This document shows positions 1,546 through 34,290 of a DNA stretch of 38,870 bases, piece after piece. This DNA is from Thermoproteota archaeon (GTDB lineage Archaea > Korarchaeota > Korarchaeia > Korarchaeales > Korarchaeaceae), in assembly GCA_027491435.1 (NCBI GenBank), contig JAOZFG010000006.1, positions 1 through 38,870 on the forward strand, given 5' to 3'. Made by a program: the position numbers and the translations under genes. The notes under the pieces were generated by a model, which did no database searches, was not told the DNA's origin, and was given only the letters and a program-made list of their open reading frames with translations. Each line of letters starts with the position of its first letter. The stretch's first letter is position 1.

Positions 1546-4191
1546 TCAGGACACTATGCAGGCTGACCAGCCGCAGTCCAGGCAGGTGACACAGTCCTCC
1601 TTGTAAACCAACCTCACGCTACCGCACTCCGGACACTTCTCTATGTGGTTGTGCCCCGTGGCTCCAACTGACGGTGGCTTGAAAACTGGCTTTATAGCCT
1701 TCCTTTCATCCTCCACCACCCTCTTGAGCAGGGGCTTGCCAACCCCCAGGAGTTCCATCATCTCCAGGGTCTTGTTTTCCGTCCTTATCACGTACTCCCC
1801 CTTCCTCTGTGAGGGGGTGACCAGAACCTGAGCCGCCTTAGAGCCGTCCCTGTAGACCGTTATGCCCTTAAGCCCGAGCCTGTGGGCGAACAGGTAGGCC
1901 TTCTCAACGTCATCCACGGACACCCAGCTGGGCATGTTTATGGTCTTGCTCACCGCCGCGCATATCCACTTGGCTATCTCCGCCTGGGCCCTGACGTGGT
2001 CCCACCAAGGTATGTCGTAGGCCACGAGGAAAACCTCCTGAAGCCTCTTAAAGGCCTCTTCCTTTCCTTCTGGCGGCTCTATTCCCTGTAAGGACCCTCC
2101 ATTGTCAGCAATCTCCTTGAGCAACCTCTCGTTGTACAGACCGTTCTCCTTTAGCTGCCTCTCAAGCTCCCTGTCCACGTAGAAGAAGGAGCCGACGGAC
2201 ACCCTCTTCTCATACACCAAGGCGAATTGGGGCTCTATCCCTGATGAGACGTCGGCTATCATTGAGATGGAACCTGTTGGGGCTATGGTCGTCACTTCGG
2301 CGTTCCTGATCCCGTACTTCATTATCTCCTCCCTCAGAGCATCCCAGTCAAGGTACCACCACTCCGGGTGGTAGAAGCCCTCGACGGGCATCTCCCCCTT
2401 CACGTAACCTGACTTCTCGTAGAGGGGGAACGGGCCCCTCTCCTTGGCCCTCTCCACGCTTTCCAGCATTGCGTAGTAGGTTAGGTGCTCGGTGACCTTG
2501 CGCATGAACTCAAAGCCCTCCTCGCTGTTGTAGGGTATGCCCAGGGCGAACAGGGTGTCGGCGAGGCCCATCATTCCCAGGCCCACCTTCCTGGTGGACT
2601 TCGTCCTCTCCTCTATCTCAGGGATGGGGAACTTGTTAACGTCTATGACGTTGTCTAGGAACCTGAGGGCCAGCCTCACGTCCCTCGCGAAGGAGTCCCA
2701 GTCGAAGTATGACCTGCCCAGCTCGTCGAATCTTATGTAGGCGTACAAGTTAATGCTTCCCAGGTTGCAGGAGCCGTAGGGATAGAGCGGCTGTTCGCCG
2801 CAGGGGTTGGTTGAAGATATCTCCCCCAAAAATGAGCGCATCACGTTCCTCCTGTTCATGTTGTCCTTGAACAGCACGCCCGGATCTCCGGTGCGCCAAG
2901 CCATGTCGGCTAACTTGCGGAAAAGCTCCCTGGGATTCGCAGTGCCCCAAACGCTAACGTCCCTGGGGTTGATCAGAGGGTAAGGTTCGTTCCTCTCGTA
3001 GTAATCCCAGAAATCTCCAGTTATCATCACCGAGATGTTGAAGTTCTCGAACTGGCCTGGCTTGGCCTTGGCCTCGATGAACTTCCATATGTCGGGGTGC
3101 CACACCTCCAGTATGCCCATGTTTGCCCCTCTTCTGCGCCCTCCCTGCTTCACCACGTCCGTGATCACATCTATTATTCTCATGAAGCTTACTGGACCTG
3201 AGGCCTGGCCTCCCGTGGATCTGACTATGTCTCCCTGGGGCCTGAGCTTGGAGTAGTTTATGCCAACGCCCCCGCCTGACTTGAATATTATTGCAGCATC
3301 CGTGGCGGCCTTCATTATCGACTCCAGGCTATCGTCTATGTCCAGGACGAAGCAGGCGGAGAGCTGCCCTATTCTGGTTCCGGCGTTGAACAGCGTCGGG
3401 GAGTTCGGCAGAAACCTCAGGTCCACCATCAGCCTGTAGTAGTTGAGGAAGTCCTTGTAGTGGTGGTCAAACTCCCCTCTAAGGAGCATTTCCCAAAACT
3501 GGGACCAGCTCACCTTCATCTTCCCCTGCTCATTCAGCTCGTCGTAGAGGGCCTTCATCCTCTCCAGGTGGTAGCGGTTCCAGGTGAAAGTAGGCTTCAG
3601 GTGATCCTCAGGGTGACCGTTCTTAAGCCCCACCTTCCCCTCCCACTCCTCGGGTGAGAACTCCTCCTTGGGGTGAATTGGCTGACTTCCTTCGGGGTCG
3701 AACACCTTCGGGTCGTAGAGCACGTCAGGGATCACTACAAGGGCAGCTACCCTTATGAACATCGACTTCGGATCCTCTATGAGCTTGCCTGAGGGATCCT
3801 TCTGCAGGTACCTGGCGGCTAGCAGCCTTATGGCGTTAAGGGAGAGCCTCTTATCCACGTCATCCACGTAGTCCTTGCCCAGAATGGCCATCTTCTCCTT
3901 CCTTATCTTCTCCCTCTCCTTCCTGTAGAGGATGTAGGCCTTGGCCACGTCAAACAGGTCGTACTTCATTAAAGCGAGCTCCACTATGTCCTGAATCTCC
4001 TCAACGTGTGGGGGCCTTTCATCCGAGTAATTCTTCCTGATTACCCTTAGGACGTAGTTAACCACCTTCTTCAAGATCTCCTCATCATATTGGCCTACCT
4101 CCAGCATCGCCCCCTTTATGGCCCTCTCTATCCTAGACCTATCGAAGGGAACTACTCTACCATCCCTCTTGACTACCTTAGTGACTGGCAT
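1546..4191 (-). CDS. nrdJ: Adenosylcobalamin-dependent (class II) ribonucleotide reductase with N-terminal ATP cone
   Basis: VVKRDG ATP cone; PNSPTL, LSACF, GGGVG, TNPCGEQ, CNLGS and TIAPTG motifs; C-terminal Cys cluster CPECG...CVTCLDCGWSAC. SD GGAGG upstream. No intein seen. Confidence 0.96.
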   Translation of the reverse strand: MPVTKVVKRDGRVVPFDRSRIERAIKGAMLEVGQYDEEILKKVVNYVLRVIRKNYSDERPPHVEEIQDIVELALMKYDLFDVAKAYILYRKEREKIRKEKMAILGKDYVDDVDKRLSLNAIRLLAARYLQKDPSGKLIEDPKSMFIRVAALVVIPDVLYDPKVFDPEGSQPIHPKEEFSPEEWEGKVGLKNGHPEDHLKPTFTWNRYHLERMKALYDELNEQGKMKVSWSQFWEMLLRGEFDHHYKDFLNYYRLMVDLRFLPNSPTLFNAGTRIGQLSACFVLDIDDSLESIMKAATDAAIIFKSGGGVGINYSKLRPQGDIVRSTGGQASGPVSFMRIIDVITDVVKQGGRRRGANMGILEVWHPDIWKFIEAKAKPGQFENFNISVMITGDFWDYYERNEPYPLINPRDVSVWGTANPRELFRKLADMAWRTGDPGVLFKDNMNRRNVMRSFLGEISSTNPCGEQPLYPYGSCNLGSINLYAYIRFDELGRSYFDWDSFARDVRLALRFLDNVIDVNKFPIPEIEERTKSTRKVGLGMMGLADTLFALGIPYNSEEGFEFMRKVTEHLTYYAMLESVERAKERGPFPLYEKSGYVKGEMPVEGFYHPEWWYLDWDALREEIMKYGIRNAEVTTIAPTGSISMIADVSSGIEPQFALVYEKRVSVGSFFYVDRELERQLKENGLYNERLLKEIADNGGSLQGIEPPEGKEEAFKRLQEVFLVAYDIPWWDHVRAQAEIAKWICAAVSKTINMPSWVSVDDVEKAYLFAHRLGLKGITVYRDGSKAAQVLVTPSQRKGEYVIRTENKTLEMMELLGVGKPLLKRVVEDERKAIKPVFKPPSVGATGHNHIEKCPECGSVRLVYKEDCVTCLDCGWSACIVS

Positions 4192-4357
4192 CTTCCTCCA
4201 GTATTCTTTGCCCGATGGAAAAATAAGCCTAGACGTCCGCTTTCAGGTCCGGCGTTTTTCAGAGCTGAAATAACTCCCCAAAAAAGTTATAGAAAAATTT
4301 TATGATGGATAGAGGGCTCCTTCCCAAGCCATTCGCTAGTAGAGGGGGCGATAAGGC

Positions 4358-4873
4358 TTGGTGGGTTTGGTACACCTTTACACGGGCAATGGGAAGGGTA
4401 AGACAACGGCCGCGTTCGGCCTTGCCCTCAGGATGGTCGGTAGGGGGAAGAGGGTTCTAATCATCCAATTTATGAAGGGCAGGCCCACAGGGGAGGTCAT
4501 AGCCTCCAAGAAGCTTGAACCTATGCTCGAGGTCAGACAGTTCGGTACCCCCAGATTCGTCGATCCGAAGAATCCGGATGAGGAATCTGTTAAGAGGGCT
4601 AAAGAAGGGTTAGAGCTCGCTAGGAAGGCTGTGAAAGGCGATTACGATCTAGTCGTACTAGATGAAGTCAACGTGGCCGTCTCCTTCGGCTTACTAGATG
4701 AGGACGAAGTCTTAGAAGTAGTTAGGGGAAAAGATAAGGATGTGGAGGTAGTTCTCACCGGCAGGTATGCGCCCCGATCGTTTTACGAGATAGCAGATTA
4801 CGTGACCGAGTTCAGGGAAGTGAAGCACCCCTTCGCTAGGGGGATAAAGGCTAGGGAGGGGGTGGAGTACTGA
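4358..4873 (+). CDS. cobO: Cob(I)alamin adenosyltransferase, CobO/BtuR type
   Basis: YTGNGKGKTTAA, QFMKG, VLDE, LTGR and KHPF..G..AR.GVEY motifs. Confidence 0.95.
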   Translation: MVGLVHLYTGNGKGKTTAAFGLALRMVGRGKRVLIIQFMKGRPTGEVIASKKLEPMLEVRQFGTPRFVDPKNPDEESVKRAKEGLELARKAVKGDYDLVVLDEVNVAVSFGLLDEDEVLEVVRGKDKDVEVVLTGRYAPRSFYEIADYVTEFREVKHPFARGIKAREGVEY

Positions 4874-7102
4874 TCATATGACGTAGCTCTCCTCCTTTCT
4901 CTCCTCCGGGGGAGTCACCGCCCTCAGGGTCTTCATTACCTCCTCATAATACTTAAGAAGGTCATCCGTTAAGCTCGGTTTTATCTTATGTAGGGCCATC
5001 TCGAAGTGCCTCATTTCCACCTTGGATGCGTTTAGGTCCTCTCTAAGGGCTGACATCGCCGCCTCCCTAACCAATGCAGCAAGGTCTGCACCGCTGAACC
5101 TATCGGTCATAGTCGCAATCCTCCATAGGTCTACGTCTTCAGCTAACGGCATCTTCTTGGTCAAGACTTTCAAGATTTCGTGTCTGGCCTGCAGATCTGG
5201 TGGGCCCACGTATATCAATCTCTCTAACCTGCCCGGCCTTAGTATAGCGGGGTCTATCAGGTCGGGCCTGTTTGTAGCTCCTATTACCACTATGTCCCTG
5301 AGGGGCTGTATCCCATCTATCTCAGTCAACATTTGGCTGACCACTCTCTCCGTCACGCCTGAATCAAGTCCAGTGCCCCTCCTCGGGAATAGGGAGTCTA
5401 TCTCGTCGATGAATATTATGGCAGGGGCTACCTGCCTGGCCTTCTTGAACACCTGTCTTACAGCCTTCTCGCTCTCACCAACCCACTTGCTGAGCAATTC
5501 AGGGCCCTTTATGCTTATGAAGTTGGCCTCGCTCTCGCTGGCCACTGCTTTGGCTAGCAAGGTCTTCCCACAGCCCGGCGGGCCGTAGAGGAGTACACCC
5601 TTGGGGGGCTCTATTCCCAGCCTTCTGAAAGCGCTGGGATTCTTTAGAGGAAGCTCTACAACCTCCCTCAGCTCCTTTTTGACTTCCTCAAGTCCGCCAA
5701 CGTCGTCCCAAGATATGTTAGGTATCTCTATGGATATCTCCCTGAGGGCTGAGGGCTGTACTATCTTCAAGGCCTCCGAGAAGTCCTGCTTGGTCACCTT
5801 GAGCGCCTCCAATATCTCGAGAGGTATGGTGTCAGAGTCCAGGTCTATTTGAGGTAGCACCCTCCTCAAGGCCGCCATAGCCGCTTCCCTGACCAGGGCG
5901 GCTAGGTCAGCCCCCACGAACCCGTGAGTTATCTCAGCTATCTCATCCAAGTCAACGTCATCGTCCAGGGGGACGTTCCTGGTGTGTATCTGGAGTATCT
6001 CCTTCCTCCCGTTCTTGTCTGGCACTCCGATCTCTATCTCCCTGTCGAACCTGCCAGGCCTCCTGAGAGCTGGATCTAAAGCTTCTGGCCTGTTGGTGGC
6101 CCCTATGACTATGACTTCTCCTCTACCCTTGAGCCCGTCCATTAAGGCCAGGAGCTGGGCGACGACGCGCCTCTCAACCTCTCCAGTGACTTCATTCCTG
6201 TTAGGGGCTATTGAGTCTATCTCATCTATGAATATTATGGAGGGTGCGTTCTTCTCAGCTTCCTCGAATATCTCCCTTAGCCTCTTCTCGCTCTCACCGT
6301 AGTACTTGCTCATTATCTCGGGGCCCGATATGCTTATGAAGTGGGCGTTGCTCTCGTTAGCCACTGCTTTGGCTAGCAAGGTCTTCCCGGTGCCTGGCGG
6401 GCCGTACAGGAGCACTCCCTTGGGGGGCTCTATTCCCAAGTGTCTGAACAGCTCCGGGTGCTTAAGTGGGAGCTCGACCATCTCCCTTATCCTCTGAATC
6501 TCCTCTTTGAGGCCTCCGATGTCCTCATAAGTTATTGTGGGGATTGATATCTTGGAAGGCTCGACGGGCTTCTCCCTAACCTCTATAATGGTTGAGGGAC
6601 CCACCTTACCGAAGTTCCCCGGTGACACGCTCACCACGACAAGGGGAATGAACCTCTGGAATATTGGGATCAGTACTACATCTCCCTTGGTCACCACGTA
6701 GTCAAATATCCTCTTCTTAACCCAGTTGTGGAAGTCAGGAGCCACCCTGATCATGTGATCCTGTGGGGCCAGCACTATCTTAGATGCTTCGGAGACCTCT
6801 ACCGGCCTGACCCTGACCTTCTCCCCGGTCCTAACTCCGGCGTTCCCCCTGATTATCTTGTCCATCCTTATGAACCTGGTTCCTACGTCCATGCTCACTG
6901 ATGGCATGACCCTGGCGTGGGTTACCCTGGAGCCGTATATCCTGACGTAGTCTCCGCTGGTAAGGCCTATCTGCCTCATCACCTCTGGGTCTATCCTAAC
7001 AATCCCCCTGCCGAAGTCAGCTTGTTTTACCACATCAGCCACAATTAACGTGACGTCTTTGGGCTCTTTCTGACCCTTTTTAGCGGTGGGTTTTCTTCCC
7101 AA
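4874..7102 (-). CDS. cdc48: CDC48/VAT AAA+ ATPase
   Basis: N domain plus two AAA modules (GPPGTGKT and GPPGCGKT; IDEID; RPGRFDR and RPGRLER). Confidence 0.96.
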
Positions 7103-13149: not shown

Positions 13150-14130
13150 CTACTTTTTTAATATGTAGTACTTTGTTGGAATAAACCTAAACGTAGTTTC
13201 AGGTTTTTCCTTAAGCAGCACTTCTACGATCCTCCCTAGGGCGTTCGCCTTGATCCTGTAGCCCGCCTTGTCACGGGCCATCACCTTAACCCTAGCTTCT
13301 ATACCTTCTTCGGAAAGTTCAACGTTTTCTGGGAAGAAAGCTATCTTCAACCCCCTAAGATCCTTAGGAAAGCCTCCTCTCTCTGGAATCGAGAGAACGT
13401 TGGCCCCCAGAAATAAGGCCACCTCCTCATACCTTGGGTCCGATAGGACCTCCTCTACAGGGCCCTCCCTCACAACCCTACCTTCCATCATAAGGACAAG
13501 TTTTTCCGCCAAGGTTAGGGCCTCATGATGATCGTGTGTCACGTAGATCACGGTAAACTTGTTCTCGCTGAAGAGCTCCCTCATTTCCCATAATAGCTCC
13601 TCCCTGAGCATGTAATCTAGTGAACCGAAAGGCTCATCCATTAGGAGTACCTCTGGTCCCGGCGCCAGGGCCCTGGCTATGGCTACTCTCTGCCTTTGAC
13701 CTCCGCTAAGCTGATGTGGGTACCTGTCATCTAGCCCTTCCAGCTTGAGCATCCTCAAGTATTCTCGGGCTATAAGCTTAGCTTCGGAGAAGCTTTTTCC
13801 CCTAACTTCTAACCCGAAAGTCACGTTTCTCAGCACCGTTAAGTGGGGGAATAGGGCTAGGTCTTGAAACACGAAGCCTACATTCCTTTTGGCCGGTGGC
13901 AAGCTTAATACAGAACTTCCATCGAATAGAACGTCTCCCTCATCGGGAAACTCCAGTCCAGCTATCACTCTTAGTGTGGTGGTTTTACCGCAGCCGCTAG
14001 GCCCTAGGAGGGCGGTAATGCCTGTGTGAGCTGTAAAGCTAACACCCTTTAAGACCTGTTGTCTCCCGAACCTCTTGTGAACCCCTTTCACTTGGACTTC
14101 AACCACTTCATCCTCGCCTCCACAGCCCAC
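13150..14130 (-). CDS. thiQ: Thiamine ABC transporter ATP-binding protein
   Basis: GPSGCGKT, LSGGQRQR and LLMDEP motifs; last gene of the TPP-riboswitch operon. The true start is probably slightly downstream. Confidence 0.85.
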   Translation of the reverse strand: MGCGGEDEVVEVQVKGVHKRFGRQQVLKGVSFTAHTGITALLGPSGCGKTTTLRVIAGLEFPDEGDVLFDGSSVLSLPPAKRNVGFVFQDLALFPHLTVLRNVTFGLEVRGKSFSEAKLIAREYLRMLKLEGLDDRYPHQLSGGQRQRVAIARALAPGPEVLLMDEPFGSLDYMLREELLWEMRELFSENKFTVIYVTHDHHEALTLAEKLVLMMEGRVVREGPVEEVLSDPRYEEVALFLGANVLSIPERGGFPKDLRGLKIAFFPENVELSEEGIEARVKVMARDKAGYRIKANALGRIVEVLLKEKPETTFRFIPTKYYILKK

Positions 14131-15623
14131 TTCAGGCCCAAGTAGAGGGAAGTCAGGAACACAACCAATACGGACATTATAGAGGCCATCTGAAACCTCC
14201 TGGCCCCAGCGTACTTCAAAGTGGCTACTGTCAGCGTTTGTGTCTCTGTTGAAGCTAGGAAGTAGCTGGCCGTGGTCTCCGAGGTGGCCAACGCCAGTGA
14301 GTAGAAGAGCCCTACCATAAGTGCTGGCCTAGCTACGGCCAGGCCTACCTTAATTAGGGCGTCATGCCTAGACATTCCAAGGGTTTCGGCCGCCTCGATT
14401 ACCTCCGGGGAGAGCCCAGATATTCCGGCGTTGATGGCCCTCAAGGTGAAGGGCAATGCTATGAATACGTAGGTCAAGATCATGAGGATCCACCTGGGCA
14501 TCGACCTGGATAGCATGAAGAGACCTAGAGCCAGAGTTATGGAGGAGGTTCCCAAGGGAAGGGATGTTGTAGCTAGGATAGCTTTTCTCATCCTGGATGA
14601 GAGCGCGAACAGCGTGCTCAGCAGAAACACCATCAGGGTGGACTCAGTGGAGAGCACTATCGTGTTGACCAGAGGGACCAGGGGGTGGGTTCCGAGGGTG
14701 GGATCGTAGCTGAGGAGCTTGGCCCACTCACCCAAGTTCAAGGAGCCGGACATAGGATCGTAAAGAGACCTAATTAAAAGGTAGGAGAGGGGCAGTAAAG
14801 AGAAGGTGGCCGTGAGCCAAGGGTACACTGAGGCCAGCATCGACTTCTTCCTCCTCCTGACCTCTAAGGTGCTGACCTCCCTCTCCCTCATGAAGAGTAC
14901 GAGGGACATGGTCACGAGCAATTGTAGAATTGCCACGGCTGACGCCTTGTTAGGGTTCATGAGCACCTTGTAGAGGGAGTATATCTCCACCTCCAAGGTC
15001 CTGTATCTGGGGCCACCGAGTAACAGGGGTATGGCAAAGCTGGTGAAGCTTAGGGCAAACGTCAGGAGGAACCCGTAAGCGATCCCCTTGATAGCTAGTG
15101 GTGCTATCAGCCTTCTGAACCTATCAAACCAGTCAGCCCCTAGTACCTCGGCTGCCTCCTCTAGCCTCTCACTAACCGTGGACAGGGAAGATGATACCAT
15201 CTGAGCTACCATCCCAAAGTTGAAGTAAGCGTGGGCCAGGACTATTGGGATCCAACCTCTAGGCATGAGGCCAGCGTTAACCAGAAGTAAGAATGCCAGA
15301 GCTACCGTGGATGAGGGGAGTGTGAAGGGTAAGGTGGTGAAGGCTTCTACCAGCTTTCGGCCGGGGTAATCGTAAGTGGAGTTCACGTATCCCAGAGGAG
15401 TGGCTATCATCACGGTTATAAGGCCGCTCAACAGGGCTTGCCACACAGAGAAGCGGAGGGACCTAATCACAGCTGGGTCCAGGATTTCTCCTAAATGAGG
15501 CAACCCTTCCACGAGTATCCTACCTGAGGACAACGCCCAAAAAAGTAGGATGAAGGTGAGCACGGATAGACCAGCGATTAATTCCAGAAATCCTGCCCTC
15601 AAGACCCTACTACCTTCCTCCAC
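14088..15623 (-). CDS. thiP: Thiamine ABC transporter permease (two fused TM modules)
   Basis: Multiple TM helices, two EAA loops (EEAAEVLGA, IEAAETLGM) and the ThiP-like LAHAYFN and TLEVEIY motifs. Confidence 0.87.
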   Translation of the reverse strand: MEEGSRVLRAGFLELIAGLSVLTFILLFWALSSGRILVEGLPHLGEILDPAVIRSLRFSVWQALLSGLITVMIATPLGYVNSTYDYPGRKLVEAFTTLPFTLPSSTVALAFLLLVNAGLMPRGWIPIVLAHAYFNFGMVAQMVSSSLSTVSERLEEAAEVLGADWFDRFRRLIAPLAIKGIAYGFLLTFALSFTSFAIPLLLGGPRYRTLEVEIYSLYKVLMNPNKASAVAILQLLVTMSLVLFMREREVSTLEVRRRKKSMLASVYPWLTATFSLLPLSYLLIRSLYDPMSGSLNLGEWAKLLSYDPTLGTHPLVPLVNTIVLSTESTLMVFLLSTLFALSSRMRKAILATTSLPLGTSSITLALGLFMLSRSMPRWILMILTYVFIALPFTLRAINAGISGLSPEVIEAAETLGMSRHDALIKVGLAVARPALMVGLFYSLALATSETTASYFLASTETQTLTVATLKYAGARRFQMASIMSVLVVFLTSLYLGLKWAVEARMKWLKSK

Positions 15624-16702
15624 TCCTCCAACCAGCTCTTAAGTTCTTTACCGATTTCCTCTGTGGAGATGATCTTATTCATTAGCTCCACCTTCAGCGG
15701 ATCTATTGCGTACTTCTTGAACTCATTGGGCAGTTCCACCTTGGAGCTGGCAGGATACATCCAGTTGTTCAAGGGGATGAGCGACTGCACCCTCGGCGAG
15801 AGGAAGTAATCTATGAACTTCTTAGCCAGCTCCGGGTGCTTAGATCCCTTTACAAGCCCTATGCCTTCTATCTGCAGCCACCCGTAGCTCTTCCCCTTAT
15901 ACTTTATCAGGGTGGCCCTGTACCTGGTCTCGTTGTAAAAGTGATAAGAGTAGGCTCCATCGGTTCCGTAACTGATCACTATAGGCCTGCCCTGCTTCTC
16001 GTCCAGGAAGACGTCATAGGCGTCTCCCCAGCTACCGACTATCATTAACCCGTTGTCAACTGCCTCTTTCCACCACTGCCTCCAGTCGCCCCCGACCATC
16101 TTATAGTAAGCTATTTCCCATAGCAGGAAGCTGAGTCCCGTGCTACTTAGAGTTGGATCCTCGGCGACCAGCTTGGAGGCGAGCTCTGGTGATTTGAGAT
16201 CGTCAAAGGACAGGGATTCTACTAGATCCGGCGAAATTCTCTTGGAGTCGTACACCAGAGCTATTAACCCGTAGTCGTAAGGAACCACGTGAAGCGATGG
16301 ATCCAAAGACTTTACAAGCCAATCGTACACGTCGTCCAAGTTTGCTGGCCTATAAGGCTCTAAGACCCCTGCCTGTATAGCTTCATGCACGAGCACGTTG
16401 TCAATCCCTATTATCACGTCAGCCTGAGGATCGTCCTTCTCTTCGATCAAAGCTAAAAGCGCCGACCTGGCATCGTCAAATTCTCTAACCTCCACCTTAC
16501 AGTTGTATTTCTCTTCGAAATAACCAAAGACTGCCTGTCTAGTGGCGTTGGGGTCATCTCCCCATTTTAGGAGGCTCTCGTATGTGTATATGACCAGCCT
16601 GTCCTCTCCCTTGCTTCCTCCCAAGTAAAGCCAGTAAGCAACTCCTATGGCAAGTATCACCAGTAAGAGAGCCAGGATCACCTTAGACGTGCTCCAGCTC
16701 AC
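15599..16702 (-). CDS. thiB: Thiamine ABC transporter substrate-binding protein
   Basis: N-terminal membrane anchor; IYTYES, ADVIIGIDN, PYDYG, DPTLSSTG, QIEG and NNWMYP (TbpA-like). I prefer GTG at 16702 as start over 16726 because a GGGAGG SD lies about 10 nt upstream. Confidence 0.9.
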   Translation of the reverse strand: MSWSTSKVILALLLVILAIGVAYWLYLGGSKGEDRLVIYTYESLLKWGDDPNATRQAVFGYFEEKYNCKVEVREFDDARSALLALIEEKDDPQADVIIGIDNVLVHEAIQAGVLEPYRPANLDDVYDWLVKSLDPSLHVVPYDYGLIALVYDSKRISPDLVESLSFDDLKSPELASKLVAEDPTLSSTGLSFLLWEIAYYKMVGGDWRQWWKEAVDNGLMIVGSWGDAYDVFLDEKQGRPIVISYGTDGAYSYHFYNETRYRATLIKYKGKSYGWLQIEGIGLVKGSKHPELAKKFIDYFLSPRVQSLIPLNNWMYPASSKVELPNEFKKYAIDPLKVELMNKIISTEEIGKELKSWLEEWRKVVGS

Positions 16703-16759
16703 TCCCCCCAACCCTCCCGCAGACACCGGGGGGAGTTGGGATCGGCATAAGGAGCTGCC

Positions 16760-16864
16760 GCGGGCACGCTCCCTACGCCGGCATTACCCGGATCAGGTTC
16801 GAGGGGTCGGCGGCAGACTAGCCGCCCTCTCAGCCGGGTTCACCCCAGCTCCCCCGGTGCCCGC
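16760..16864 (-). ncRNA. TPP riboswitch (THI box) aptamer
   Basis: Minus strand reads GCGGGCAC-CGGGGGAGC...GCTGAGAGGGCGGC...GCCGCCGACCCCTCGAACCTGATCCGGGTAATGCCGGCGTAGGGAGC-GTGCCCGC. It has the conserved CUGAGA and ACCUGAU/UAAUGC/GCGUAGGGA cores, a perfect 8-bp P1, and lies directly upstream of a thiamine transporter. Confidence 0.95.
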
Positions 16865-16884
16865 CACTAAAGTGGGAAGTAAAG

Positions 16885-16900
16885 AAATAAAAATCCTTAC
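16885..16900 (-). promoter_or_regulatory. Putative BRE/TATA promoter of the riboswitch-thiBPQ transcript
   Basis: Minus-strand GTAAGGA-TTTTTATTT about 20-30 nt upstream of the aptamer P1. Confidence 0.45.
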
Positions 16901-16923
16901 CGGCGACTAGGTGGGGACCCTAC

Positions 16924-18252
16924 TTGTGGAGAGTAGCCCTTATATCTCTAATTTTTCTAATTTTAAGTCAGGGATGGGTCGTAGTAATCGATAGGAATGG
17001 CTATGAGGAAGTTAAAGATATAGAGATTATAGACAATGGTTTAGTTGTCGTGGGCCACGTGGTCTACTCTAAACAGGTGGACGGTATCGTGCTCTTTCTT
17101 GATGATTCGGGCAGTCTAGAGAAGTATCTTAGGGTAGACGTTGGATATGATGAGTACCTCACGTCTATCTGCGATCTGGGAAATAGGATTGTCATAGCTG
17201 GGTATGTTAAGGGTAGGGAAAAGGCAGGCGTGATAGCCCTGAGCCTGAGCGGTAAGGGCGACCTCATTTGGGGAAGGATTTATAATGTTAAGGCTAAAGA
17301 TCTTAAAATATTCTCATGTAGTAGGCTCAACAATTACTTAGTGCTGACGGGAAGCGTGTCTACAGGAGGTGATATGAACGCACTCATAGCCTTCCTTAAG
17401 GAGGACGGATCTCTGGTTAACATGACCTCCTTTGGGACGAACCTAGTTGAATGGGTCAACTCAGCCTACTCCACTGGAGGTAAACTCTTCTTAGCTGGAG
17501 GGGCCCTGACTGACTCCTCGGCGGACTTATGGTTGGCCGACTTTAAGCGAGGCAGAGTTTATCTGTTTAGTGAGGAGGGCTGGCAAGAGGCGTACTCCGT
17601 TAACGTCAGAGGCGATAAGATCCTGTTAGTGGGATCTACCAGCGACGGAGGGTGGGACGTCACGGCTTTAATGATCAAGGGGGGAGAGATACTCTGGGGA
17701 AAGAGGTACGGAACTCCTTACATGGATTTGGGATACGATAGTTGGCTAGGAGACAGCATCTACATCACCGGAGAAGTCAGATGCTTCGGGGGCGGATGTA
17801 ACGCCCTGTTAATGGAACTGAATGAGGATGGAGGTTTGATGAGCTCAACGGAGGTTGGAGGAGAGAACATGGAAAGGGGATACGCCTTGGATTCTGATGG
17901 GGAAAGGGTTTTCATTGCGGGCTACTCCGACTCATTCAGCCTAGACGTGTGGGGCGGAATACTAGTGGTTTCGGGAAGGGGCGGGTGTAAATCTGAGGAA
18001 ATCAACGTTACCTCTTTTGATGAGAATTATGATAAAAGGGTCCTTGAAGCTCATGTTAAATTAATTGAATGGAATGAAGAAAAAACAAGAGTGAAACTGA
18101 GTCAAGAGAGCCCTCACGTCAGGAATCCATGTCAAACAGACTTAGATAGGTTAATGGAGATTGTGGTTCCTTTACTGGCAATTATGGCATTTATGATTAC
18201 AATATACCTGAGTTGGAGGTTAATATTCAAAAGGTCAGGAGAAAGCAGTTAG
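16924..18252 (+). CDS. Secreted, membrane-anchored beta-propeller-like repeat protein
   Basis: Signal peptide; repeated blades (WGRIY, WGKRYG..D.GY, I.IAGY/ITGE); C-terminal TM helix plus basic tail. Confidence 0.7.
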   Translation: MWRVALISLIFLILSQGWVVVIDRNGYEEVKDIEIIDNGLVVVGHVVYSKQVDGIVLFLDDSGSLEKYLRVDVGYDEYLTSICDLGNRIVIAGYVKGREKAGVIALSLSGKGDLIWGRIYNVKAKDLKIFSCSRLNNYLVLTGSVSTGGDMNALIAFLKEDGSLVNMTSFGTNLVEWVNSAYSTGGKLFLAGGALTDSSADLWLADFKRGRVYLFSEEGWQEAYSVNVRGDKILLVGSTSDGGWDVTALMIKGGEILWGKRYGTPYMDLGYDSWLGDSIYITGEVRCFGGGCNALLMELNEDGGLMSSTEVGGENMERGYALDSDGERVFIAGYSDSFSLDVWGGILVVSGRGGCKSEEINVTSFDENYDKRVLEAHVKLIEWNEEKTRVKLSQESPHVRNPCQTDLDRLMEIVVPLLAIMAFMITIYLSWRLIFKRSGESS

Positions 18253-18765
18253 AAACTTTGACAGAGCTCTCCTAATGTTACGACTAACGGTGGACACGTG
18301 AACGCCCAGTTCATTTGCTAATTCAGTAAGGGATGTCCCCCTTCCATTTATGTTAAATAGCCCCCTTTCCAGCGCCATCTTTATGTATTTTATCTCAGTT
18401 TCAGTTATCTTTATTCTTTTTGTTAGCTCAGCAAATGGAAAATCTTTTCTAAATTCATCCGGATCACCTATGATGGTAACCTTAAGCCTTTCATTTCCTA
18501 GATCAGATACGTGTATTAATGTATAATTCTTAAATGATGCGTTGGCAAATAGGCACCTTTTCGATTTAACAGCTACTATATTTCCCTTTTGTGCAATAAT
18601 TTCATCCTTTATCTGATGACCGTTTTCACCTAGGACCTCCAGCCACAATATGGCAGAATCCTCCCTCTTCTCTATAAATAAATGTCTAACTTTACCTTCT
18701 AAATCAGTGTAAGGGCAATCGGTGTTATGGTATTCTGGAATTTCGAAGACGTGAAGGCACACCAA
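18235..18765 (-). CDS. HTH transcriptional regulator (Bat/HTH_10-like C-terminal domain)
   Basis: C-terminal ITETE...ALERGLF...SLTELANELGVHVSTVSRNIRRA. Confidence 0.8.
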   Translation of the reverse strand: MVCLHVFEIPEYHNTDCPYTDLEGKVRHLFIEKREDSAILWLEVLGENGHQIKDEIIAQKGNIVAVKSKRCLFANASFKNYTLIHVSDLGNERLKVTIIGDPDEFRKDFPFAELTKRIKITETEIKYIKMALERGLFNINGRGTSLTELANELGVHVSTVSRNIRRALSKFLTAFS

Positions 18766-33399: not shown

Positions 33400-34290
33400 A
33401 TGTTGACCCCGTTCCAGTTGGCTTTGATCAAGGTGCTCTCTTCAATTCCACCCGGCAAGGTGGCCAGCTTTGGCTCTATAGCTGAAGCTTTGGGAGATAG
33501 AAGGGCTGCTTTAGCCGTGAGGAGCGAGTGTTTGAGGTTAAGGAAACTTAACGTTGAAGTTCCCTGGTGGAGGGCCGTAAACTCTGATGGAGTTCCGTTA
33601 AAGGAGGCCATCCCTTTCCTTAAGAGAGAAGGGGCTTTGAGGGGGAGTGTTGTAGAGAGGGAGCTCTTCGTGGATCCTCCGGAGAAGGAGCCTTTCCTCT
33701 CCAGGCTTAGGGCCATCCAAGAGAAGCTCTCTGAGAGGCTGGTGATAGGGGGCCTCCCAGATTCTGAGGTCGCTGGTGGCTTGGACGTCTCCTACTCCTT
33801 AGTTAACGGGATAGAAGTGGCCTACGCCTCCTGCGTCTTAGTGGACGAAAGGTTAAGGGTCGTGAAGGTGGAGAGGTTCAGCTACGTCCCTCCTATGCCT
33901 TACGTGCCCACATACTTGGCGTTTAGGGAGATAAGGGGCATGCTCGTAACCGCCAGAAGATGTAAGCCCGACGTGCTCTTCGTGGACGGTCAGGGAATCC
34001 TTCACCCTAGGCTGCTAGGGGAGGCCAGTCACGTGGGACTCGTAGCTGGGATCCCATCAATAGGGGTGGCTAAATCTAAGTTGGTGGGCAATCTTAAAGG
34101 GAACAAGATTTTCGTAGGGAAGGAGCACAGGGGGTGGCACTTCAGGGGGGGTTTCGTCTCCCCCGGTCACATGGTGGGCGTTAAAGAGTCTTTAGAGATA
34201 GCTAAGAAGTTCTGGTTGCCAGGGGAAAAGCAACCTAGGCCGCTAATACTGGCTCACAGGGACTCAAAATCTAGTAGACGTTTGGCTTGA
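33400..34290 (+). CDS. nfi: Fusion of an alkyltransferase-like DNA-binding domain and endonuclease V
   Basis: N-terminal IPPGKV.S.G.IA..LG...VPWWRAV (AGT/ATL fold); C-terminal EndoV motifs GLDVSY, PYVPTYLAFRE, VDGQGILHPR..G.A.H, IGVAKS and FVSPGH. Confidence 0.88.
   Translation: MLTPFQLALIKVLSSIPPGKVASFGSIAEALGDRRAALAVRSECLRLRKLNVEVPWWRAVNSDGVPLKEAIPFLKREGALRGSVVERELFVDPPEKEPFLSRLRAIQEKLSERLVIGGLPDSEVAGGLDVSYSLVNGIEVAYASCVLVDERLRVVKVERFSYVPPMPYVPTYLAFREIRGMLVTARRCKPDVLFVDGQGILHPRLLGEASHVGLVAGIPSIGVAKSKLVGNLKGNKIFVGKEHRGWHFRGGFVSPGHMVGVKESLEIAKKFWLPGEKQPRPLILAHRDSKSSRRLA

Follow-up and report, generated by a model that had tools for sequence, protein, structure and literature searches.

A thiamine pyrophosphate (TPP) riboswitch aptamer was identified on the minus strand of a 38,870-nucleotide stretch of DNA from an uncultured archaeon of the phylum Korarchaeota (Thermoproteota archaeon, assembly GCA_027491435.1, contig JAOZFG010000006.1, positions 1 to 38,870; the whole stretch is referred to below as the window). 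The aptamer stands at the head of three genes for an ATP-binding cassette (ABC) importer of the thiamine type, here called the thiBPQ-like operon. As judged from the sequence, the RNA element is almost certainly a real TPP aptamer, and it very probably controls the operon behind it. The best overall explanation, and probably the right one, is that this leader acts as a translational OFF switch of the Escherichia coli thiM type. An earlier note, made from the bare sequence of the window, had proposed an archaeal TPP riboswitch with G/C-rich stems at this place, and most of what it claimed is borne out below.

Results

A full-length TPP aptamer with G/C-rich stems

The whole window was scanned with cmscan against the 4227 families of Rfam 15, and a single match was returned. 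This was to RF00059 (TPP) at 16865..16752 on the minus strand, with 66.4 bits (E 4.7e-11), where the gathering score is 54.3. The match is full length, covering model positions 1-105 of 105 without truncation, and it was also the sole TPP match when the whole 1.64-Mb genome bin was searched. The span given in the earlier note, 16760-16864, is the P1-to-P1 core of the RF00059 match and holds the stems P1 and P3 that it named. The covariance-model search that the note had suggested as a check is therefore clearly positive, and the canonical THI-box elements that it described are indeed present.

P1 is formed by GCGGGCAC (16864-16857) with GUGCCCGC (16767-16760), and P3 by GGCGGC with GCCGCC. The two sides of each helix, being reverse complements, have the same letters whichever strand of the DNA is read; it is the minus strand that is functional. 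The conserved consensus stretches of the RF00059 model, CUGAGA and GAACCUGAUCCGG.UAAU.CCGGCGUAGGGA, are matched letter for letter. Moreover, the 'THI box' stretches that contact the ligand, CUGAGA and ACCUGAUC...UAAU...GCGUAGGGA, are invariant in an alignment of 26 related leaders.

When the 107-nt core is folded alone, it adopts the canonical P1-P5 fold at -63.8 kcal/mol (z = -3.78), and none of 200 dinucleotide shuffles folds as well. The junction has the architecture of the family, with P1 closing both the P2/P3 arm (the pyrimidine sensor) and the P4/P5 arm (the pyrophosphate sensor). The 35 predicted core pairs comprise 29 G-C, 3 A-U and 3 G-U pairs, which agrees with the earlier description of the stems as almost all G-C, and the G+C content of the core is 0.74 compared with 0.51 for the window. 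Across the 26 related leaders 98.3% of the cells are paired, against 33-50% when the partner strand is slid, and four of the 35 pairs have changed on both sides. Since most pairs never vary, the support from covariation comes mainly from P1 and P3.

The predicted energy of the aptamer is -19.2 kcal/mol at 80 C and -11.2 kcal/mol at 90 C. By comparison, the aptamer found in a Spirochaete metagenome-assembled genome (MAG), which also lies ahead of a thiB relative (L080), is predicted at -3.9 kcal/mol at 80 C and, at -0.4 kcal/mol, is melted at 90 C. The 16S rRNA of a genus-mate has a G+C content of 65%, a value typical of (hyper)thermophiles. The view of the earlier note that this is a thermostable aptamer is a reasonable one on these predicted energies.

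A thiBPQ-like operon in a host without recognisable thiamine synthesis

Three genes on the same strand, encoding a solute-binding protein, a permease and an ABC ATPase, begin 49 nt after the RF00059 match. The aptamer is therefore sense-oriented in the 5' leader of the first of them, the thiB-like gene, as the earlier note had placed it. The thiB-like protein scores 202 bits on TIGR01254, the thiamine solute-binding subfamily of NCBIfam (cut-off 93.4), and 123.9 bits on the E. coli-type equivalog TIGR01276, below the cut-off of 317. The permease aligns end to end with ThiP models (residues 13-492 of 511) at scores under the equivalog cut-offs (TIGR01253, 74.7 vs 395). Likewise, the ATPase gives 157-165 bits with thiQ models, also under their cut-offs (TIGR01277, 157.4 vs 245). 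Because the equivalog-level cut-offs for ThiB, ThiP and ThiQ are not reached, the operon is named 'thiBPQ-like'.

Thiamine genes were sought in the host genome, a bin of 1.64 Mb in 43 contigs that is 99.5% complete with 2.5% estimated contamination, and control genomes gave matches in every one of these searches. The ThiN domain (PF10120) had no match in the genome, and the same search was positive in five control genomes, including Sulfolobus acidocaldarius and Haloferax volcanii. There is therefore no ThiN-type synthase and no ThiR, the regulator for which the earlier note had advised that the genome be checked. ThiC, ThiE, thiamine pyrophosphokinase (TPK) and CytX each gave no match in the genome, ThiD gave only sub-threshold kinase-fold matches and Thi4 only Rossmann-motif fragments. 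ThiL was found, with 217 bits (cut-off 184).

The absence of ThiN, ThiC, ThiE, a true ThiD, CytX and TPK, together with the presence of ThiL, indicates that the host is a thiamine auxotroph dependent on the importer. From this gene content, the host would at most be able to phosphorylate imported thiamine phosphate, and the riboswitch-gated ABC system appears as its sole recognisable route to the cofactor. From the riboswitch and the lack of ThiD, ThiN and ThiE, we infer that the substrate of the importer is thiamine or its phosphates.

Signals in the leader

The A/T-rich box TTTTTATTT lies ahead of the aptamer, at a distance of 20-28 nt. In 26/26 related riboswitch loci an 8-mer containing seven or more A/T bases is found between -45 and -15, centred between -23 and -32 in 25 of them, and only 22% of random 31-nt stretches of the window contain such an 8-mer. 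The box is most likely an archaeal TATA box, with transcription predicted to start at, or a few bases from, the first base of the aptamer. Among sequencing runs listed for 16400-17000 of the window, 18 are of the DNA type, at small shares (0.05-0.11), and none is an RNA run.

The 16S rRNA of a genus-mate ends in ...GGAUCACCUCC, which holds the anti-Shine-Dalgarno (anti-SD) sequence CCUCC, and GGAGG is also seen some 10 nt ahead of the likely internal starts of the operon. Together these features indicate that the organism uses GGAGG-type Shine-Dalgarno (SD) sites. Two candidate reading frames were rejected. The GTG at 16726, which is the mechanical start of the thiB-like open reading frame (ORF), sits inside the hairpin of the expression platform, and the starts of the relatives align from 16702; an antisense ORF of 87 aa (16647-16910) overlaps the aptamer. 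A scan built for non-archaeal signals found no sigma-70 promoter or intrinsic terminator in the leader and no terminator-like site between 16700 and 16865. The leader also lacks a U-run; from the aptamer to the start codon, U never occurs more than twice in a row (UU).

A two-state model for the leader

From folding and covariation we infer a mechanism with two states. In the TPP-bound state the aptamer would be locked in its P1-P5 fold, and the C-rich strand at 16740-16728 would be left free to pair with the G-rich ribosome site. The masked region, GGGAGGG ... GGGGGGAGU (16718-16701), would extend into the GUG codon and cover its first bases, and the importer would remain untranslated. In the state without TPP, GCUCCUUAUGCCG (16755-16743) would pair with the P5/P4 3' strand of the aptamer and with the junction. 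The P1 5' strand freed in this way, together with the CCGGGGGAG that follows it, would pair with CUCCCCCCGGUGUCUGC (16734-16719), which comprises a mimic of the P1 3' strand and the C-rich strand. The ribosome site and the GUG would be single-stranded, and the importer would be made.

The 114-nt aptamer alone takes its canonical fold at 37-80 C. When the leader is extended to 150-185 nt, the minimum-energy fold at 60-80 C is an alternative structure in which the ribosome site is free. Enforcing the aptamer at 70 C costs 5.7 kcal/mol in the window's leader, and between 1.0 and 9.1 kcal/mol in 24/24 leaders tested, these being the leaders long enough for the folding test. The energies of TPP binding are of the same order and could pay this cost.

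Enforcing the aptamer is also predicted to close the ribosome site. The SD then has a mean unpaired probability of 0.14, down from 0.51, and a fall is seen in 22/24 leaders at 70 C, 23/24 at 85 C and 19/24 at 37 C. For the SD and start together, the value in the window's leader drops from 0.86 to 0.29. When the linker is shuffled, 0/200 leaders reach this difference (mean -0.01, sd 0.05).

The alignment of the 26 leaders, in which the mean column identity is 75% and the aptamer core is almost invariant, carries further evidence for the individual strands. The helix between the P1 5' strand and the mimic is paired in 95.2% of cells. Two of its pairs change on both sides, from C-G to A-U and from A-U to G-C, and 0/500 shuffles reach its score. 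The same two positions covary with the true P1 3' strand, which identifies the downstream stretch as a mimic of that strand that tracks P1; because it forms G-U pairs in most leaders, the mimic is the weaker partner. The anti-aptamer helix is paired in 90.5% of cells, against 43-47% when slid, and again 0/500 shuffles reach its covariation score. As judged by eye, the anti-aptamer strand pairs into the 3' half of the aptamer in most of the 24 free-energy minima.

Several observations weigh against this model. The hairpin that would mask the SD shows no covariation beyond that of shuffles (87.6% of cells paired, with 350/500 shuffles pairing as well), so that what speaks for it is conservation, which a fixed SD would lead one to expect. 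In the register usual among its relatives, the window's own hairpin contains two mismatches, and it needs a shifted one, which RNAfold finds. Two of the 24 leaders, L004 and L014, go the opposite way at 70 C, and in several of the thiB-type relatives L013-L017 the free minimum-energy fold leaves the SD not cleanly free. The double changes between P1 and the mimic represent perhaps two or three evolutionary events, chiefly in one cytX clade of seven sequences, and related sequences can beat shuffles without any structure. Alternative pairings come easily to G/C-rich sequences with many runs of G and C, the nearest-neighbour energies at 70-85 C are extrapolations, and the transcription start is taken from the A/T box only.

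Weighing these points, the balance tips towards control by masking of the ribosome site, and the exact relay of strands modelled above is an even bet. A broader proposal is more tentative and falls a little short of even: that the leader is a heat-adapted, equilibrium-type relay of three strands, new for TPP riboswitches and common to the thiB and cytX leaders of the phylum. The P1 5' strand would here have two covarying partners, its true 3' strand and the weaker, G-U-rich mimic on the loop side of the SD-masking hairpin, and a second conserved strand would unzip the pyrophosphate-sensor arm.

Other explanations of the leader

A real aptamer might instead act on the transcript, with TPP causing premature termination or exposure to RNase and so less full-length thiBPQ mRNA. 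Archaeal termination needs only U-runs and no hairpin, and the folding evidence is silent on coupled mRNA decay. Moreover, the action of archaeal riboswitches is little understood, the sole experimental case being described as only 'presumably' translational (PMC8241225). Against this, the gap of 49 nt between aptamer and start is taken up by a strand able to pair with the ribosome site, and the coupling of SD and aptamer is specific to the native linker, as judged from the 200 shuffles. Because the leader holds neither a U-run nor a terminator-like site, control at the level of the transcript ranks second to masking of the ribosome site and is considered unlikely.

It is very unlikely that the leader is a conserved relic, in which the aptamer binds or once bound TPP, regulation has been lost and thiBPQ is expressed constitutively in an obligate auxotroph. 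An organism unable to make thiamine might gain little by shutting its only importer, and a decayed partial copy of a cytX riboswitch does exist in a genus-mate (L112:1099-1210). A relic is hard to reconcile with a model match that is intact throughout, with ligand-contact stretches near-invariant in 26 leaders, with platform strands that are both conserved and covarying, and with a thiB-type leader that has been kept in at least nine loci of two genera.

A chance match, or bacterial contamination of an archaeal bin (TPP riboswitches are overwhelmingly bacterial, and the bin has the 43 contigs and estimated contamination given above), is effectively refuted by a score 12 bits over the curated cut-off, by near-identical leaders in 26 other genomes of the phylum, by an upstream element that is an A/T box at about -25 and not a sigma-70 promoter, and by the contig itself. 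The contig encodes CDC48, an ATP-dependent DNA ligase and a PAC2 family chaperone, and the nearest thiB loci in public genomes are in MAGs labelled Thermoproteota or Crenarchaeota archaeon; on these grounds its archaeal origin, also assumed in the earlier note, stands.

Distribution of the riboswitch

A TPP match was found in 27 of the 43 species genomes sampled from the phylum, in 25 of them over the cut-off. Matches occur in 16/20 of the other genomes in the window's genus and in 5/5, 3/4 and 2/2 genomes of three further genera. Six more genera of the phylum gave none (0/5, 0/2 and four at 0/1), and nine genomes taken from the rest of the domain were likewise without a match.

The gene behind the aptamer was recorded for 28 related loci. 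It is of the thiB type in nine, encodes a CytX-like NCS1 permease in 13 and ThiC in two, and the contig ends in the remaining four. The window's genus is cleanly split: ThiN is present in every one of the seven genomes whose leaders are solely of the cytX type and in none of those whose leaders are solely of the thiB type, the window's own genome among them.

Relatives of thiB were also approached directly. Sixty of 61 thiB-relative loci (L021-L080; L081 was left out) were scanned with Rfam, and an upstream TPP match was found at nine, eight of which are in the closest group and one in the Spirochaete MAG. Among these 60 loci there was no upstream TPP match at those of Desulfurococcales, Heimdallarchaeota or Thermoplasmata, and none at L032-L036, five close relatives whose loci include 3 kb upstream. 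The absence of a match at most of the scanned loci indicates that the riboswitch is not a general feature of archaeal thiB.

Metagenome contigs were scanned for an exact 28-base stretch of P4/P5, which gave at least 120 stretches, and 80 loci were listed. Among the loci listed, one (L138) has both the P2 and the platform motifs of the clade and repeats the cytX type; seven more share the P2 motif without the platform motif; and 72 are without the P2 motif, most of them taken as bacterial or unrelated. The 80 loci added nothing to the covariation counts. Six metagenome loci (L119, L123, L146, L175, L176 and L187) carry the window's P2 motif CCGGGGGAGCTGGG together with the P4/P5 stretch and differ in P1 and platform; from their sequences, they could represent a form of the TPP riboswitch that belongs to a different archaeal lineage. 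Eleven others (L114, L124, L126, L127, L155, L162, L168, L178, L183, L185 and L190) have the exact 28-base stretch without the upstream CUGAGA half and share another conserved continuation, GAGGTAA...GTTAAGTGTACTG...CAGATGGTTTAAC.

Variant loci in relatives

In one genus-mate (L112; G015:C2:748500-756000) the aptamer heads a salvage operon at 2745-6541 that encodes CytX (436 aa), a ThiD-ThiN fusion (450 aa) and ThiW (169 aa), and that ends with an overlapping ORF of 187 aa without a Pfam family. A second TPP match (1099-1210, 55.2 bits) lies 1.5 kb upstream of this cytX riboswitch. It is a partial duplicate, the 3' two-thirds of which match the cytX aptamer, with the P1 5' strand and P2 region replaced. 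No thiamine gene lies downstream of it, only two fragments of a pyridoxal phosphate (PLP)-dependent enzyme, and it looks like the relic of a rearrangement.

In genus g5 the aptamer lies ahead of ThiC (L082 and L090), and an in-frame TAG occurs in one of the two ThiC frames. In these thiC leaders the anti-aptamer strand pairs with the CUGAGAGGGC (pyrimidine-sensor) side and not with the GCGUAGGGA side.

Two other genomes of the phylum, G022 and G024, encode proteins of 315-318 aa in which a weak helix-turn-helix at the N-terminus is joined to a ThiN domain at the C-terminus, a build like that of ThiR (L111:1332-2288 and L113:1225-2172, both on the minus strand). Each adjoins a gene for a class I tRNA ligase. 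Genus g3 has a TPP match in 0/5 genomes and a ThiN match in 4/5, a pattern which suggests that an RNA and a protein regulator may stand in for each other inside a single family.

Features of the window

The features of the leader and operon are collected in Table 1. For the thiP-like gene, the alternative start overlaps the thiB stop codon.

Table 1. Positions of the riboswitch, leader elements and downstream genes in the window
Feature	Position	Strand	Basis or remark
TPP riboswitch aptamer	16752..16865	-	RF00059; z -3.78; 98.3% of cells paired in 26 relatives
P1 5' strand GCGGGCAC, proposed partner-switching strand	16857..16864	-	Folding, alignment
P1 3' strand GUGCCCGC	16760..16767	-	Folding, alignment
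A/T-rich TATA-like box TTTTTATTT	16885..16893	-	Centre ~25 nt upstream of first aptamer base
Conserved anti-aptamer strand GCUCCUUAUGCCG	16743..16755	-	Predicted ligand-free fold: pairs with P5/P4 3' strand and junction (GCCGGCGUAGGGAGC)
C-rich anti-SD strand CCCAACUCCCCCC	16728..16740	-	Folding: pairs with G-rich ribosome site (aptamer enforced) or aptamer 5' strand (not enforced)
P1-3'-strand mimic GGUGUCUGC	16719..16727	-	Alternative partner of P1 5' strand; covariation in 26 leaders
Shine-Dalgarno-like GGGAGGG	16712..16718	-	9 nt before start codon
Probable GUG start of thiB	16700..16702	-	N-terminus VSWSTSKVILAL aligns with (V)MRWSGKVILAL starts of relatives
thiB-like substrate-binding protein, 367 aa, N-terminal membrane anchor	15599..16702	-	TIGR01254, SBP_bac_1
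thiP-like permease, 511 aa, two BPD_transp_1 domains	14088..15623	-	Start GTG 15623 or TTG 15602 (uncertain)
ABC ATPase in thiQ position	13150..14130	-	Generic ABC_tran; likely start GTG 14106

Three further genes of the window were noted. A 442-aa ORF (16924-18252, plus strand) diverges from the promoter region of the riboswitch; it has no Pfam or NCBIfam match, and its G+C content drops to 0.31-0.40 near the 3' end. Two genes from the riboswitch, at 18235-18765 on the minus strand, a 176-aa regulator of the HTH_10 (bacterio-opsin-activator) type is encoded, for which no link to thiamine was seen. At 33400-34290 on the plus strand, a single 296-aa ORF combines two domains, the DNA-binding domain of an O6-methylguanine-DNA methyltransferase (residues 4-65) and an endonuclease V domain (residues 122-287).

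Discussion

The analysis provides a clean annotation for an uncultured thermophilic archaeon that lacks the genes to make thiamine or to salvage its precursors and appears to import the vitamin via one ABC system, very probably gated by the riboswitch. The predicted auxotrophy is useful for the choice of cultivation media and for reading the dependence of the organism on its neighbours. Within a small phylum, one aptamer is found with three thiamine strategies: import of the whole vitamin, salvage of precursors and de novo synthesis through ThiC. Some sister genera carry ThiR-like proteins, which makes the phylum a compact natural system in which to study the choice between an RNA and a protein regulator. 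Moreover, because it has a predicted start site and a short platform and offers specific mutations, the leader is a practical candidate for the first experimental archaeal TPP riboswitch. If the three-strand relay were true, no archaeal TPP riboswitch before this one would have had its mechanism defined, and the leader would be a naturally occurring part for controlling genes in hyperthermophiles.

Comparison with known systems

The closest mechanistic parallel is thiM of E. coli, a translational OFF switch. In it, part of the aptamer region holds the anti-SD strand as long as TPP is absent; once TPP locks the aptamer, that strand is set free and covers the SD and start. The window's leader has an aptamer of the same family, RF00059, and the same predicted logic. 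It differs in its archaeal promoter context, in a GGAGG site that matches the archaeal 16S end, and in stems that consist almost wholly of G-C pairs, with predicted stability up to about 90 C. A further difference, in the folding model, would be the covarying copy of the P1 3' strand beside the anti-SD strand and the separate strand that pairs with the pyrophosphate-sensor half of the aptamer.

Within the phylum, the leaders of the cytX-thiDN-thiW operons (L002-L008, L010-L012, L083, L085 and L091) have a near-identical aptamer, the same platform design and the A/T box, and differ from the window's aptamer by compensatory changes in P1 and P3. There the riboswitch stands before precursor salvage: the CytX of the operon scores 292 bits on TIGR02358, just under the cut-off, and the ThiD-ThiN fusion and ThiW follow. 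The window's leader, in contrast, belongs to the import of whole thiamine, in a genome without ThiN or ThiD.

Archaeal TPP riboswitches have been known since 2002, when they were reportedly described in Thermoplasmatales by Rodionov, and the abstract of a paper by Rodionov et al. in J Bacteriol in 2017 is reported to restrict archaeal TPP riboswitches to Thermoplasmatales. The same 2017 work reportedly presents ThiR as a ThiN-domain transcription factor of archaeal thiamine genes. ThiR has the same task as the riboswitch, which is to repress the genes for thiamine transport and synthesis under an ample supply of the cofactor, and differs in being a protein and not an RNA; it is absent from the window's genome, and proteins of ThiR-like build occur in other genera of the phylum (L111 and L113).

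The catalogue of McCown et al. (2017; PMC5473149) counts 79 riboswitches in Euryarchaeota, six in Crenarchaeota, one in Korarchaeota and one in Thaumarchaeota, TPP and fluoride being the commonest classes. The archaeal TPP riboswitches catalogued there are of the same family and domain as the present one, and the counts predate most genomes of the lineage. With Crenarchaeota and Korarchaeota already represented in that catalogue, and with the riboswitch being the rule in the window's lineage (27/43), the remark of the earlier note that riboswitches are scarce in archaea is an overstatement. The window's leader is not described in the accessible passages of PMC5473149 or PMC5397151. The word riboswitch is absent from a preprint on Korarchaeota phylogenomics, and a whole-word literature search gave no paper that joins ThiR, thiamine, archaea and riboswitch.

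The sole natural archaeal riboswitch determined experimentally as of 2021, according to PMC8241225, is the fluoride riboswitch of Thermococcus kodakarensis. That organism is also a hyperthermophilic archaeon and its riboswitch is also presumed to be translational, but the family and ligand are different. Set beside these systems, the present finding is solid: it is real, biologically coherent and in-family by every feature that can be tested in silico, and it leaves the knowledge of the riboswitch family unchanged. What it adds is a picture of the whole lineage, a concrete and testable two-state model, and a leader well suited to be the first experimental case.

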